Shown: in pieces, positions 2,226 through 9,368 of the stretch
Position numbering within the stretch: the first letter of the stretch is position 1
How the letters are laid out: every line of letters starts with the position of its first letter
Virus genome (UHGV): UHGV-0380619
DNA length: 10,543 nucleotides
Direction: 5' to 3' (one strand)
DNA from: a virus
Notes under the pieces: model-generated
The model's input: the letters and a program-made list of their open reading frames with translations, nothing else
The model's database searches: none
What the model was told of the DNA's origin: nothing
Program-made: the position numbers and the translations under genes

Positions 2226-2302
2226 TGGCGCGTTGTACTGGATTCGAACCAGTGACCGATTGCTTAGAAGGCAATTGCTCTGTCCGGTTGAGCTAACAAC
2301 GC
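2226..2302 (-). tRNA. tRNA-Arg (anticodon UCU)
   Basis: Reverse complement folds as a cloverleaf: acceptor GCGTTGT/ACAACGC, anticodon stem ATTGC/GCAAT with loop CTTCTAA (anticodon TCT), T-arm ACTGG-TTCGAAT-CCAGT, 3' GCCA. Confidence 0.9.
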
Positions 2303-2315
2303 AGGGTACAGATAA

Positions 2316-2392
2316 TGGACCGCCATCGAGGACTCGAACCCCGCGCAACCAGCTTCGAAGGCTGGTGCTCTATCCTGATGAGCTAATGGCGG
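2316..2392 (-). tRNA. tRNA-Arg (anticodon UCG)
   Basis: Reverse complement: acceptor CCGCCAT/ATGGCGG, D-arm GCTC..GAGC, anticodon stem CCAGC/GCTGG with loop CTTCGAA (anticodon TCG), T-loop TTCGAGT, 3' TCCA. Confidence 0.85.
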
Positions 2393-2399
2393 TATGTGA

Positions 2400-2475
2400 T
2401 GGTGGCCCTTGCTGGATTTGAACCAGCGACCTGGCGATTATGAGTCGCTCGCTCTCACCACTGAGCTAAAGGGCC
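2400..2475 (-). tRNA. tRNA-Ile2 (anticodon CAU, lysidine type; alternatively tRNA-Met)
   Basis: Reverse complement GGCCCTTTAGCTCAGTGGTGAGAGCGAGCGACTCATAATCGCCAGGTCGCTGGTTCAAATCCAGCAAGGGCCACCA: anticodon loop CTCATAA, T-arm GCTGG-TTCAAAT-CCAGC. Closely resembles E. coli ileX as recalled. Confidence 0.85.
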
Positions 2476-6405: not shown

Positions 6406-7347
6406 TCACCCCCTGAATCCTTCCGGGATCTGGCTGTAGTCCACGTTGTCGTAACTGGCTTTGAAGTACGGGTCCTCACGTTTTTCTGTGTGCGTGCTGA
6501 CGGACGGCGATAAGCGCAGGGAAAGCTCATCCCATTTTTCCCGCAACTTCGACGGGCTGAGCACGTTACGGCACCAGAACGGATCACGGCTGACGCGGCT
6601 GTACATCTCGCAGATTTGTTTGTGAGTACGACCATCCTGCACACACATCAGGCGAATTTCGTTTGCCCATGCTGTCCAGTTCGGTTCTTTGGGACGAACC
6701 ACCTCGCCGTCACATTCGGCGGCCTGCTCGTACAGGGCGATGATTTTTTTCCAGAGCCACTGTGCGCAGGTCAAATCATCCTGCGTTCCCCACTGGCGCT
6801 TTTTAGGGCTGAATACAACCGCATCAGGATGGCGAGTTAAAAAATCCTGTTCAGCCGTCTGCGTGTCCGGTTGCAAAGCGTCCGGACGAGAAGGTTTTTT
6901 ATCTGACGGATCATGTTTTGATTTTACTGACGGATCCCCGCCAGATTCTGACGGGTGAAAACACGCTTTTTTGCCAGATTTCGACGCATCAAATTTTGAC
7001 GGGTCAGATTTTGATGCGTCAGATTTTGACGGGTCAGAATCTGACAGTTGAGAAAATGCCGCAGCCTGAAGCTTCGCAACGTTAAGCTGATAAACATTCG
7101 ACGCATTGCGGTTACCCTGGCGACGCGCCTTACGCGTTAACCAGCCTTCTGCTTCCAGCCGTGCGATAGCCGTTCTGACGGTACTCATCCCCGCGCCAAT
7201 CTGGCGGGCAATGGTTTCAATTGATGGCCAGCACACACCCTCGTCATTACTGAAATCAGCCAGACGGGCCATAATTGCCACACTGGATAATTTCATGCCT
7301 GACGCTGCGCAACCATCCCATACATAGCCGGTTAATTTGGTGCTCAC
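6406..7347 (-). CDS. Replication initiator (lambda O-like; HTH replisome-organiser N-domain with low-complexity linker)
   Basis: GTG start at 7347 preceded by a strong SD AAGGAGGTG with an in-frame TAA immediately upstream. N-terminal HTH region (LTGYVWDGCAASGMKLSSVAIMARLADFSNDEGVCWPSIETIARQ). Central pentapeptide repeats (SDPSK/SDASK) encoded by iterons. Confidence 0.8.
   Translation of the reverse strand: MSTKLTGYVWDGCAASGMKLSSVAIMARLADFSNDEGVCWPSIETIARQIGAGMSTVRTAIARLEAEGWLTRKARRQGNRNASNVYQLNVAKLQAAAFSQLSDSDPSKSDASKSDPSKFDASKSGKKACFHPSESGGDPSVKSKHDPSDKKPSRPDALQPDTQTAEQDFLTRHPDAVVFSPKKRQWGTQDDLTCAQWLWKKIIALYEQAAECDGEVVRPKEPNWTAWANEIRLMCVQDGRTHKQICEMYSRVSRDPFWCRNVLSPSKLREKWDELSLRLSPSVSTHTEKREDPYFKASYDNVDYSQIPEGFRG
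6901..7048. repeat. Origin-like iteron array inside the O-like gene (about 8 copies, consensus AGATTTTGACGGGTC, 15-bp period in the core)
   Basis: Repeated TCTGACGG(G/A)TC-type units at about 6903, 6926, 6947, 6980, 6996, 7011, 7026 and 7041. Each unit contains a short inverted repeat (TCTGAC..GTCAGA). An AT-richer stretch follows at 6891-6930. Confidence 0.7.
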
Positions 7348-8201
7348 TTACGCACCTCCTTATGCTTTTCGTTCAGTTCCGAGTCCACCAGCCCGGCAAC
7401 GAATACACCATCGTTGATGTAGTCGTAGAGCGATGAAGCCAGCGGAGACTGAACTGAAACCAGCATCGGATAAAGTTGTTCTAACCAAACGCGGTGAATT
7501 TCAGCCATGTAGAGGTAAACAACGTGGGCATTGTGCGCGACACATGAAGTATCAACCTTTCCGATCAGCGCCTGTTCCATCTGGTTAAAGGCATTGATGT
7601 ATGCCTCTTTGAACTGGGCAGCACGTTTACCCGTGAAACCCATAGCAAGAAACGCAAAGCCATCGCGGGTTATTTGATAGCAAGGTAGTTTGCGAGTACC
7701 GCCGTTGGGCTGGCGTACCAAAATTGATGTCTCCGCAAAATTGCGGGCACAAAACTCTGGAGAACAATCCAAAATGCGAATCTTTTTCAGAACATCGTCA
7801 TGACGTTTAGAGAAGAAGTCAGCAACAGCCAAAGAAGATGTAACAGCCTGACCATCAACGATGGCAATTTCAGGTTGAGAGAGGGTTGGGAGAGTAGTCA
7901 TAGTGACAGCCCCGGTAGTCAGTTTTTTAGAAAACTCACCACATGGGACGCCAATCACAGAGGTGGTGAGACGTACAGGGTTGGCGTTACCGGAGACTAC
8001 CGAACCCGGCCCGACCGAAGTCGGCCCTGTACGCCCCACCATAATTTGGGCGTAGCAATGCTCATGACACGAAAAAACCGCATGAGCGCGGTTATGCTCA
8101 GTAATCAATTTCAGGACGCCAATCCCGGCAACGGATTTTGCCGCTGCCAGAACAATATAACGCCCAGAATTATCAGAATCAATCATTACTGGTTTGCTCA
8201 T
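7344..8201 (-). CDS. Rha-family phage regulatory protein with an unassigned ~100-aa N-terminal extension
   Basis: Rha-like core from about residue 101 (MTTLPTLSQPEIAIVDGQAVTSSLAVADFFSKRHDDVLKKIRILD...). ATG at 8201 preceded by AAGGGA; alternative internal start ATG at 7901. The N-terminal 100 aa have coding-like codon usage. Stop overlaps the O-like GTG start. Confidence 0.65.
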   Translation of the reverse strand: MSKPVMIDSDNSGRYIVLAAAKSVAGIGVLKLITEHNRAHAVFSCHEHCYAQIMVGRTGPTSVGPGSVVSGNANPVRLTTSVIGVPCGEFSKKLTTGAVTMTTLPTLSQPEIAIVDGQAVTSSLAVADFFSKRHDDVLKKIRILDCSPEFCARNFAETSILVRQPNGGTRKLPCYQITRDGFAFLAMGFTGKRAAQFKEAYINAFNQMEQALIGKVDTSCVAHNAHVVYLYMAEIHRVWLEQLYPMLVSVQSPLASSLYDYINDGVFVAGLVDSELNEKHKEVRK

Positions 8202-8210
8202 GATCGTCCC

Positions 8211-8549
8211 TTATCTCCCTGAACTTTTGCCTGAAATGCTCAAGCGGGCTGAAGCATTCATGTTCATAGCCTTCACGGAGGTAGATAACCCGTTGTGTTT
8301 CCGGCTCCCAACGAATGACTCTGACGGGCACTCCGTAGTGATCTTTGAACCAGCGGTTAACTTGTCGCAAAGGACTGTCTCCTTCTGCCGGTTGAAATCC
8401 CCCACAGCCCACTCTGCAAAGCAGTGGGTTACAATTTCCCTGTCACCTGGTACATTCACTGCATAGCAATACTCCACCTTCGCTTTTCCACCCGGTACAG
8501 GAAGCGCAATCAGTTGCGAGCGACGGTAGTGTGTTGTTAAACTGTTCAT
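8211..8549 (-). CDS. Hypothetical protein (112 aa), translationally coupled to the upstream gene
   Basis: ATG at 8549 overlaps the upstream stop (ATGA) and is preceded by GGAGAAA. It overlaps in a different frame with a second protein-like ORF at 8179-8412, so the assignment is ambiguous. Confidence 0.4.
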
Positions 8550-9187
8550 GCGTTAGTTTCTCCACAACCAGAAGCAATCGACGCCACGACGCCCGGAGCT
8601 GCACACTCGCGGGCGTTACTCTTTTCCGGCGCACAAAAAACACGAAATAACAGTGTTAAATGCTCCTGCCACTTCGCCATTACTTGGTAGCTGTTCTCTT
8701 CGATTTGCTCACGCTCAGCTTGGTCAATAACTCCATCAGCAGTTGCCTTGCGTAAGTACTGGGAATGCTTGCCAATCCATTCTATTGACTCCATCAGCCG
8801 CTGATTAATGTCACCATTGTCAATGTCATCAATGACCACCAGCGGCACAAACACCCCATTACTACGACGGGCTATTGCATCCGTTACATGCCTGGTACCA
8901 CTGGCATCCTGTAAAACCATGGCCCACTCAAGTGGAAAAATTTGATCCCCACCGCTACGCAGTCTGTTATGCAATTGATCTTTTGCTGGGGTGATATCAT
9001 CAGATTTATACAAACCAAGAATTTCTGCTGCTTCCTCATAGCCATGAGGTAAATCAGCAATCGTTCTTCGTATTGCTGCCACCAGCCATGCTGGTTGCTT
9101 ATCAACTTTCCATTCAGGTTCTTTACCCACGTTTAAGCCCTCATATCTGTGGTTTCTGTAAATCGATTTATCCATTAGATTTTTCAT
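8546..9187 (-). CDS. CII-like / YdaT-like early regulatory protein (family uncertain)
   Basis: Long ORF immediately downstream of the Cro-like gene. Start not resolved: ATG at 9187 or 9175, both with weak SD; the track start at 9244 is GTG and would overlap cro extensively. Confidence 0.5.
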
Positions 9188-9368
9188 AAAGCTCAGGTTT
9201 AAATGGCAACCGTCCGCAAGTTCTATATGCAGCCTCTGCTGCACGTCCTTTTGGAATTAACTGGCCAGGACGGTTTCGCCACTGATAAACGGCTTCAGTT
9301 GTTATGCCGAAAAAAGCAGCAACTTTCTCAATGCTGCCGAAGTAGCTTTCGATATCGTCAGTCGTCAT
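9168..9368 (-). CDS. cro: Cro-like repressor (YdaS-type HTH)
   Basis: 66-aa ORF. ATG at 9368 preceded by GGAGGG. Motif VAAFFGITTEAVYQWRNRPGQLIPKGRAAEA resembles the YdaS/Cro family. Divergent from the CI gene across an operator-rich intergenic region. Confidence 0.75.
   Translation of the reverse strand: MTTDDIESYFGSIEKVAAFFGITTEAVYQWRNRPGQLIPKGRAAEAAYRTCGRLPFKPELYEKSNG

Follow-up and report, generated by a model that had tools for sequence, protein, structure and literature searches.

Layout and identity of the two reading frames

We analysed the UHGV virus genome UHGV-0380619, a stretch of 10,543 nt that is referred to here in its entirety as the window. Between positions 8179 and 8549, two long open reading frames (ORFs) overlap on one strand in different frames, as a preliminary description of this sequence had pointed out, and both were found to lie on the minus strand. 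We call them A, which belongs to the family of the cell division inhibitor YmfM, and B, which belongs to the DUF4222 family. The parts of the locus are the following.

8211-8549, minus strand: A, ymfM orthologue, 112 amino acids (aa), ATG start, from the ORF list
8179-8412, minus strand: B as first listed, 77 aa, GTG start
8179-8370, minus strand: B, DUF4222 protein in its preferred form, 63 aa from TTG 8370
8373-8549, minus strand: N-domain of A, codons 1-59, non-overlapping, conserved as protein
8211-8370, minus strand: dual-coding segment of 160 nt, A codons 60-112 plus stop and B codons 1-54
8211-8213, minus strand: stop codon TAA of A, at B codon 53 (ATA) and the first base of codon 54
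8546-8563, minus strand: start signals of A, with GGAG at 8563-8560, ATG at 8549-8547 and overlap with the ymfL-like stop at 8548-8546
8379-8384, minus strand: Shine-Dalgarno sequence of B, AAGGAG, a perfect match inside A codons 56-57 (K E)
8399-8403, minus strand: run of five G (G5 run) in A codons 49-51, a sporadic indel site fusing the A N-domain to B

A is read in the +1 frame of B, and a step from A into B is a -1 shift. Upstream, the B frame is open as far as a TGA at 8445-8443. Downstream, the next ATG (8201-8199) lies 9 nt past the stop of A and in the same frame as A.

In BLASTP, A is identical to E. coli K-12 YmfM (b1148) at 98 of 102 positions (96 %, E = 4e-77). The preliminary description had proposed profile searches of both translations, and both gave matches. 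A matches phrog_1170 over residues 1-111 (E = 1e-64), and its N-domain matches phrog_20047, a 63-aa profile (E = 9e-42); A has no match in Pfam or NCBIfam. To judge from these matches, A is the orthologue of YmfM/SfiC, the SOS-linked cell division inhibitor of prophage e14. B matches Pfam PF13973 (DUF4222) at E = 7e-18 with 64.4 bits, the cut-off being 27, over model positions 1-52 of 53. It shares its length and conserved motifs (VIRWEP...) with the PF13973/phrog_1343 family, whose members are 59-70 aa long across Enterobacterales. PHROGs keeps separate families for full-length A, for the first 63 residues of A and for B.

The e14 region of K-12 resembles the window in the length of A, in the position of A after ymfL with an ATGA overlap, and in its cro/cI-type early operon, and it too has a nested DUF4222 ORF (TTG start, 59 aa). 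It differs in the last 10 residues of A, the 3' end of the overlap being mosaic, and in what follows, which is an isrK-C4-Rha cassette in the window and the replication gene in K-12.

The chromosome of the finished E. coli genome ECSC054 matches the window at 100 % identity, and in it the Prokaryotic Genome Annotation Pipeline (PGAP) places WP_071592424.1, a 63-aa DUF4222 protein, at exactly 8179-8370 and leaves 8371-8545 empty, a gap of 175 nt. In every non-K-12 E. coli genome listed, PGAP gives only DUF4222 and not A. In the e14 region of K-12 MG1655 it is the other way round, with ymfM (b1148, 112 aa, "cell division inhibitor YmfM") annotated and the DUF4222 gene not. Phage SfII has only A annotated, as a 112-aa ORF, and a Klebsiella phage only B. 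This conflict between ymfM-only (K-12, SfII) and DUF4222-only (PGAP) annotation affects thousands of genomes, the region being matched in 2,685 of 5,426 complete genomes, and the present analysis resolves it: by the sequence criteria tested, the locus is two real genes, one a member of the YmfM family and one of the DUF4222 family. Neither the overlap with the ymfM gene nor the stop-free +1 frame is described in those parts of the DUF4222 literature that were available.

Start signals and predicted structures

The preliminary description had credited A with a canonical ATG, a Shine-Dalgarno sequence and ATGA coupling (8549-8546), and all three are present. The GGAG sits 10 nt upstream of the ATG, and GTGGAGAAACTAACGC followed by ATG is kept in relatives at the start of A. 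For B, the same description had seen only a GTG without a Shine-Dalgarno sequence, which is correct for GTG 8412 but overlooks an in-frame TTG (8370-8368), 14 codons further downstream, that has AAGGAG 8 nt upstream. In 21 diverged relatives the column of this TTG holds ATG in 16, TTG in 3 and GTG in 2, and purine-rich GGAGG/AGGAAGG elements stand at the position of the B Shine-Dalgarno sequence. PGAP also places the start of B at TTG 8370 in the 100 % identical genome. To go by these signals, B most likely starts at TTG 8370 and not at GTG 8412.

In AlphaFold2 models, residues 1-66 of A are moderately ordered (predicted local distance difference test, pLDDT, 58-76), the N-domain having three strands and two helices, and residues 68-112 are predicted to be disordered (pLDDT 33-41). 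The C-terminal half of A is Ser/Thr-rich, as had been noted earlier, with 11 Ser and 4 Thr among the last 52 residues. B, in which the rare codons AGA, AGG, ATA and GGA listed by the preliminary description all occur, has a pLDDT of 80.5 with four strands and a helix, and is modelled as a confident small beta barrel plus helix.

Conservation in relatives

Homologous loci were collected from one-genome-per-species contigs (23 loci), viral contigs and metagenomes. Both frames are open in Citrobacter, Enterobacter, Kluyvera, Kosakonia, Phytobacter, Atlantibacter and many viral contigs, and in these relatives A is always 109-117 aa long and stops at the same B codon. Judged by eye in the alignment, A ORFs running through B persist down to about 50-60 % identity in B, and the two-frame layout is kept in at least 25 diverged lineages. 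The protein database also contains truncated versions of A, which were considered as possible nonsense mutations and proved to be contig ends, insertions or indels.

A fused homologue had been named in the preliminary description as a sign of a frameshift mutation. Fused A-B proteins are only sporadic: there are five (P0029, P0053, P0060, P0065 and P0089) among hit sets of 90 and 120, with five different junctions, each a singleton or a single-contig cluster. P0065 (14 member sequences, one contig) amounts to one extra G at the G5 run, where K-12 reads GGGTG, and the run is probably an indel-prone or error-prone spot and not a recoding site. The description's failure to find a classical slippery heptamer was borne out, as the window has no X XXY YYZ in phase, its sole heptamer (GGGAAAT at 8440) being out of phase, and relatives have heptamers only sporadically and at non-homologous positions.

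Several readings of this kind were rejected. Programmed -1 frameshifting lacks a conserved in-phase heptamer, and B has its own AAGGAG and TTG (mostly ATG in relatives). A frameshifted pseudogene does not agree with the finding that intact fused homologues are not the rule and that both parts have ratios of nonsynonymous to synonymous substitution rates (dN/dS) well below 1 in their own frames. A fused homologue as the ancestral form was set aside because the fusions are sporadic and have different junctions. Given the conserved two-frame layout, the sporadic fusions and the absence of a conserved heptamer, frameshift mutation, assembly error and programmed frameshifting are all unsupported.

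Selection in each frame

We estimated dN/dS by the Nei-Gojobori method with a codon bootstrap in four clades. For A codons 1-59, the values in the A frame were 0.39, 0.31, 0.40 and 0.13 (all confidence intervals, CIs, below 1), compared with about 1-2 in the B frame and about 0.8-1.3 in the third frame. In the overlap, the values in the B frame were 0.14, 0.10, 0.16 and 0.09, compared with naive values of 1.5-2.0 in the A frame and with 1.1-2.4 in the third frame. The synonymous rate of B in the overlap (0.6-1.55) is not below that of A upstream (0.4-0.74). We also used an OLGenie-like partition that holds the effect on B constant, N and S standing for nonsynonymous and synonymous in the two frames. 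The A-frame dNN/dNS in three clades was 1.03 (CI 0.68-1.64), 0.58 (0.18-2.8) and 1.10 (0.38-4.9), and the B-frame dNN/dSN was 0.07-0.09.

Purifying selection on amino acids in both frames was not found within the overlap, where only B is constrained. Between the window and K-12, B has 9 synonymous versus 2 non-synonymous codon differences, while the last residues of A change. Selection on the hydropathy or composition of the tail, acting through synonymous sites of B, gave only weak, non-significant trends. By these measures, the tail of A evolves neutrally in its amino-acid sequence. Its richness in Ser, Thr, Gly and Ala is consistent with the third-position composition of B: in the window, 57 % of these positions, which are the second positions of A, are C or G.

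According to the preliminary description, purifying selection in only one frame would resolve the locus to a single ordinary gene. The premise holds for amino acids within the overlap, where the selected frame is that of B, but the locus cannot be reduced to one gene, because the upstream half of A is selected in its own frame and the A frame is kept free of stops through B.

Avoidance of stop codons in the +1 frame

For a stop to arise in the +1 frame, a Leu, Val, Ile or Met codon of B must precede a codon that starts with A or G, and we call such contexts critical. When the B protein is fixed and its synonymous codons are drawn at random, the +1 frame is open in 2-9 % of trials. At B codons 4, 18, 28 and 43, which are always critical, only codons ending in T or C are found. 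At harmless Val, Leu and Ile columns, GTG, CTG, TTG, ATA and TTA are common, and columns of the critical kind that are rendered harmless by the next codon also take codons ending in A or G, so that codon choice switches with context. In neighbouring genes of the same loci, a +1 stop occurs in 29-34 % of such contexts, with 1.7-2.3 stops per 52 codons.

We chose 26 representatives with pairwise synonymous p-distances of at least 0.43 and a median of 0.79, which is near saturation. In 25 of the 26 there are no avoidable +1 stops in 119 critical contexts, compared with 34 expected from the codon use of B itself in harmless contexts; the nominal P of about 1e-22 is overstated, since the lineages are not fully independent and saturation justifies independence only approximately. 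Counting all 26 sequences, the +1 frame has 4 stops versus 108 in the +2 frame. One clade has a single +1 stop that is forced by a Met-Ile replacement in B. There is no stop in the +1 frame of 38 further metagenome haplotypes, a scan that covered only close relatives (82-97 % identical) and is a population-level check, not an independent one. Fisher tests on Val/Leu columns (4 critical versus 3 non-critical) gave P of about 0.03 with little power and were replaced by the context expectation. The +1 stop at B codon 53 is itself kept through residue changes (ATA-A/G, TTA-A, GTA-G and GTG-A).

The overprinting is selected for an open frame and not for sequence. It is a clean natural example of an open-but-unconstrained overlapping frame, invisible to dN/dS-type tests, and such a frame may point to selection on ribosome traffic and not on protein.

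Split arrangements and exceptional lineages

Using a hidden Markov model (HMM) of the N-domain, with matches down to E = 1e-32, we found that both in Providencia-type loci and in viral loci related to them the N-domain forms an ORF by itself, about 69 aa long, which lies in frame B+2 and immediately precedes DUF4222. In the Providencia-type arrangement the N-domain stop lies 6-11 nt after the ATG of B. In 14 of 15 distinct junctions this stop overlaps an ATG of the +1 frame as ATGA, TGATG or TAATG, and an ORF of about 56 codons, lying within B, begins at this +1 ATG. The Providencia-type clade taken alone shows significant stop avoidance (29 contexts, 7.6 stops expected, P about 1e-5). In loci L119-L138 (about 1201-1211) and L025 (about 2001-2011), three signals fall within 11 nt, with the ATG of B at position 1, the N-domain stop at 6-8 or 9-11 and the +1 ATG at 8-10. 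The nested +1 ORF of Providencia-type loci opens with a hydrophobic stretch of about 20 residues, for example IISIAFIWISAVFVFVSYVM, and the third codon positions of B in these loci have 55 % T in codons 1-22 versus 22 % T in codons 23-52.

Locus L143 (1201-1380) has 3 avoidable +1 stops in 8 contexts, which is the neutral rate, and is the only lineage with avoidable stops. It also has no +1 ATG next to the N-domain stop, and it appears to have lost the overlapping ORF naturally. In loci L111-L117 (about 1040-2210 in L111), no stop terminates the +1 frame, which runs on in phase into the Ash/Rha gene, and the distance from stop to stop is 305-389 codons; the upstream YmfM N-domain is degenerate (HMM E = 0.003) or absent, but within B the +1 frame nevertheless stays open.

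In Entomohabitans teleogrylli (L172, 1501-1737), there is no DUF4222, and the replication gene comes immediately after an N-domain gene of 78 aa. The short tail of this N-domain gene opens with LC.QLT and in this resembles the overprinted tail at its start, a likeness that suggests a deletion of B. Together, the split loci and Entomohabitans indicate that the N-domain, the +1 track and DUF4222 are separable modules, of which the window holds the fused form.

Interpretation and alternative explanations

We think it probable that the locus is a two-gene, two-frame region, in which the ymfM N-domain carries an overprinted extension, the nested DUF4222 gene has its own start, and the open frame is under selection. 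In such a region, once the CI-like S24 repressor is inactivated in the SOS response, ribosomes leaving ymfL would re-start at the ATG of A through the ATGA overlap. They would make the folded N-domain and then read on across the ribosome-binding site of B, and reading through the overlap would yield a disordered tail in which Ser, Thr and Gly abound. These ribosomes would terminate adjoining the next start codon, and other ribosomes would initiate independently at TTG 8370 to make B. We infer that selection on the tail preserves uninterrupted translation or length and not sequence. The most likely reason for keeping the tail open is the delivery of ribosomes to the next cistron, preventing polarity; as an alternative, the tail could be an unstructured C-terminus of the division inhibitor, for example a spacer or a degron.

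Several points weigh against this interpretation, beside the overstated nominal P value. Translation of either frame within the overlap is a prediction from sequence, the tail has no amino-acid or hydropathy constraint, and the function of its product is putative. Part of the reason why the conserved TAA/TAG at the end of A is kept may be that it forms the 5' end of the extended Shine-Dalgarno sequence of the next gene. In the window, coupling of A to the start at 8201 is uncertain, because the ORF starting there crosses two small RNA (sRNA) genes. Stop avoidance also holds where A is separate, as in Providencia-type loci, or degenerate-looking, as in L111-L117, and for this reason it cannot simply mean that A needs its tail.

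Existing annotations amount to the position that only one of the two ORFs is a gene. If it were B, as in PGAP, which annotates DUF4222 alone in the listed non-K-12 E. coli genomes, the 112-aa ORF would be spurious and 8371-8545 non-coding. The lack of a Pfam or NCBIfam match for A would fit, but the N-domain dN/dS of 0.13-0.40 in the A frame only, in four clades, refutes this view, and with the conserved ATG, Shine-Dalgarno sequence and ATGA of A, the N-domain families phrog_1170 and phrog_20047, the occurrence of the N-domain as a stand-alone ORF and the filamentation caused by expressing the A ORF, we regard it as very improbable. That A is the only gene and the DUF4222 ORF a by-product, as the K-12 MG1655 and SfII annotations of the 112-aa ORF alone would have it, has practically no chance of being right: it is refuted by the Pfam match of B (E = 7e-18) and by dN/dS in the overlap of 0.09-0.16 in the B frame and above 1 in the A frame, and B has a conserved start and Shine-Dalgarno sequence, a confident predicted fold, and persists where A ends at the start of B. 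A frameshift mutation, a sequencing error or a programmed -1 frameshift of a single protein made of the A N-domain and DUF4222 would account for the -1 shift from A to B, the few database fusions and the G5 run. It is scarcely credible in view of the five differing junctions, the layout kept in at least 25 lineages, the lack of a conserved heptamer and the start that B has of its own, and K-12 does without the G5 run and the window is identical to a finished genome. Of the options in the preliminary description, that one ORF is spurious, frameshifted or overprinted, only overprinting survives.

A different possibility is that A is real and its tail an unselected read-through to the first chance stop, the open frame being inherited and accidental. 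The neutral tail (dNN/dNS 1.03), the B synonymous sites that are not slowed, the predicted disorder of the tail, its hydropathy equal to that of synonymous randomisations and the Entomohabitans N-domain gene of 78 aa that exists without B are all as this would predict. We nevertheless think it improbable, as an accidental frame would not be expected to give 0 stops in 119 stop-prone contexts versus 34 expected at near-saturated synonymous sites (median p-distance 0.79), nor the context-switched codons, when neighbouring genes have 1.7-2.3 +1 stops per 52 codons and the +2 frame has 108 stops. The +1 ORF inside DUF4222 could also be an independent ancient cistron with a peptide function, fused to the YmfM N-domain in e14-like phages. 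The +1 ATG that heads an open frame of some 56 codons in 14 of 15 Providencia-type junctions, the significant stop avoidance in Providencia-type loci alone and the fact that L143 has lost ATG and open frame alike speak for such a cistron. It is unlikely, however, to encode a functional peptide, given that no clade shows amino-acid constraint on the +1 frame and that the hydrophobic start in Providencia-type phages is only a weak excess over the sequence imposed by B (P 0.01-0.4); the AAT/GAT-GAA codons of B are by themselves enough to create the +1 ATG, and translation from it is a prediction.

More tentatively, and with some doubt on our part, Enterobacterales DUF4222 genes might carry an ancient +1 cistron that is kept only as an open translated track, either fused to the YmfM N-domain, as in e14-like phages, or ATGA-coupled to it, as in Providencia-type phages. 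The +1 track may serve as a ribosome conduit and anti-polarity device, or as a sequence-free disordered tail.

The lambda Rz/Rz1 pair is the familiar case of such nesting, with Rz1 wholly in the +1 frame of Rz and both products defined, constrained and acting together. A and B resemble it in having two frames on the same strand and an inner gene whose own ribosome-binding site lies inside the outer gene. They differ in that one frame here has no amino-acid constraint in the overlap and the functional domain of the outer gene lies outside it. The A/B overlap is phage gene packing of an ordinary sort. It involves a gene that has been studied, however, and an open-but-unconstrained frame that is family-wide is unusual.

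The YmfM phenotype

Expressed from pBAD24, the K-12 ymfM ORF is reported to eliminate Z rings and to make cells filament without needing SulA, SlmA or MinC, and deletion of ymfM lowers SOS filamentation in a sulA background (bioRxiv 10.1101/2020.11.19.390815). Ansari et al. assigned SfiC to YmfM in this work and treated the 112-aa protein as the only product (bioRxiv 10.1101/2020.11.19.390815). The insert in pBAD24 is given as "the open reading frame", and it therefore carries the Shine-Dalgarno sequence and TTG of B and 53 of its 59 codons. Most of B is also lost in the ymfM deletion. Library clones obtained earlier covered ymfL(3')-ymfM-ymfN(5'), and two cell-sorting screens narrow the active fragment no further; the PIRT-seq paper does not mention ymfM, e14 or DUF4222.

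Since the clone and the deletion both affect both genes, they do not assign the filamentation phenotype among the N-domain, the tail and B. The SfiC division block may be due wholly or partly to the nested DUF4222 protein. This bears on the 40-year-old question of the identity of SfiC, as the published plasmid and deletion work did not separate the three possible products.

Operon context and neighbouring features

In an e14/SfII-like lambdoid prophage of E. coli, the segment is part of the early-right operon. Its context is that of a lambdoid early-right operon, consisting of a LexA-family (S24)/CI-like repressor, cro, ymfL, A and B, and regulatory and replication genes. The Cro/CI-type regulator and the LexA-family (S24) repressor lie upstream, and gene order is as in K-12. 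The neighbouring features are the following.

8546-9130, minus strand: upstream putative regulator of the YmfL family (NCBIfam NF041471, E = 1e-53; PGAP coordinates)
7344-8201, minus strand: downstream ORF with Ash and Rha domains (Pfam), 285 aa, "Rha family" in PGAP
2226-2302, minus strand: tRNA-Arg(tct)
2316-2392, minus strand: tRNA-Arg(tcg)
2400-2475, minus strand: tRNA-Met(cat)

Read from its first GTG, the ymfL-like ORF extends over 8546-9244 (232 aa), and the PGAP start at 9130 gives 194 aa. The short form is more likely, because in the long form the match to the NCBIfam YmfL model begins only at residue 55 and ends at residue 203.

In the downstream ORF, Pfam places Ash at residues 15-110 and the Rha domain at residues 121-210. 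Rfam matches above the gathering score identify two RNA genes on the minus strand within it, the isrK Hfq-binding RNA at 8071-8147 (68.6 bits) and the C4 antisense RNA at 7959-8046 (82.3 bits), both of which fall in the first third of the ORF, immediately downstream of B. The real antirepressor may start at an internal Met, the "Ash" part being an ORF read across the two sRNA genes. P1 immI (c4 RNA-icd-ant) and Gifsy-1 isrK-orf45-anrP each combine a small gene that interferes with division and an antirepressor on one coupled early transcript. The RNA-gene layout of the window resembles that of P1 immI and Gifsy-1 isrK-anrP, as compared through the RNA matches only, with the difference that the RNA cassette is missing from K-12 e14 and SfII despite the same A/B pair. 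Neither A nor B was seen to resemble Icd in sequence, although no search aimed at this was made.

Elsewhere in the window, there is an STnc100 sRNA match at 1950-2149 on the minus strand (133 bits), followed by the three tRNA genes listed above. The prophage tRNA-Arg(tct) would read AGA, a codon that B uses at codon 17.

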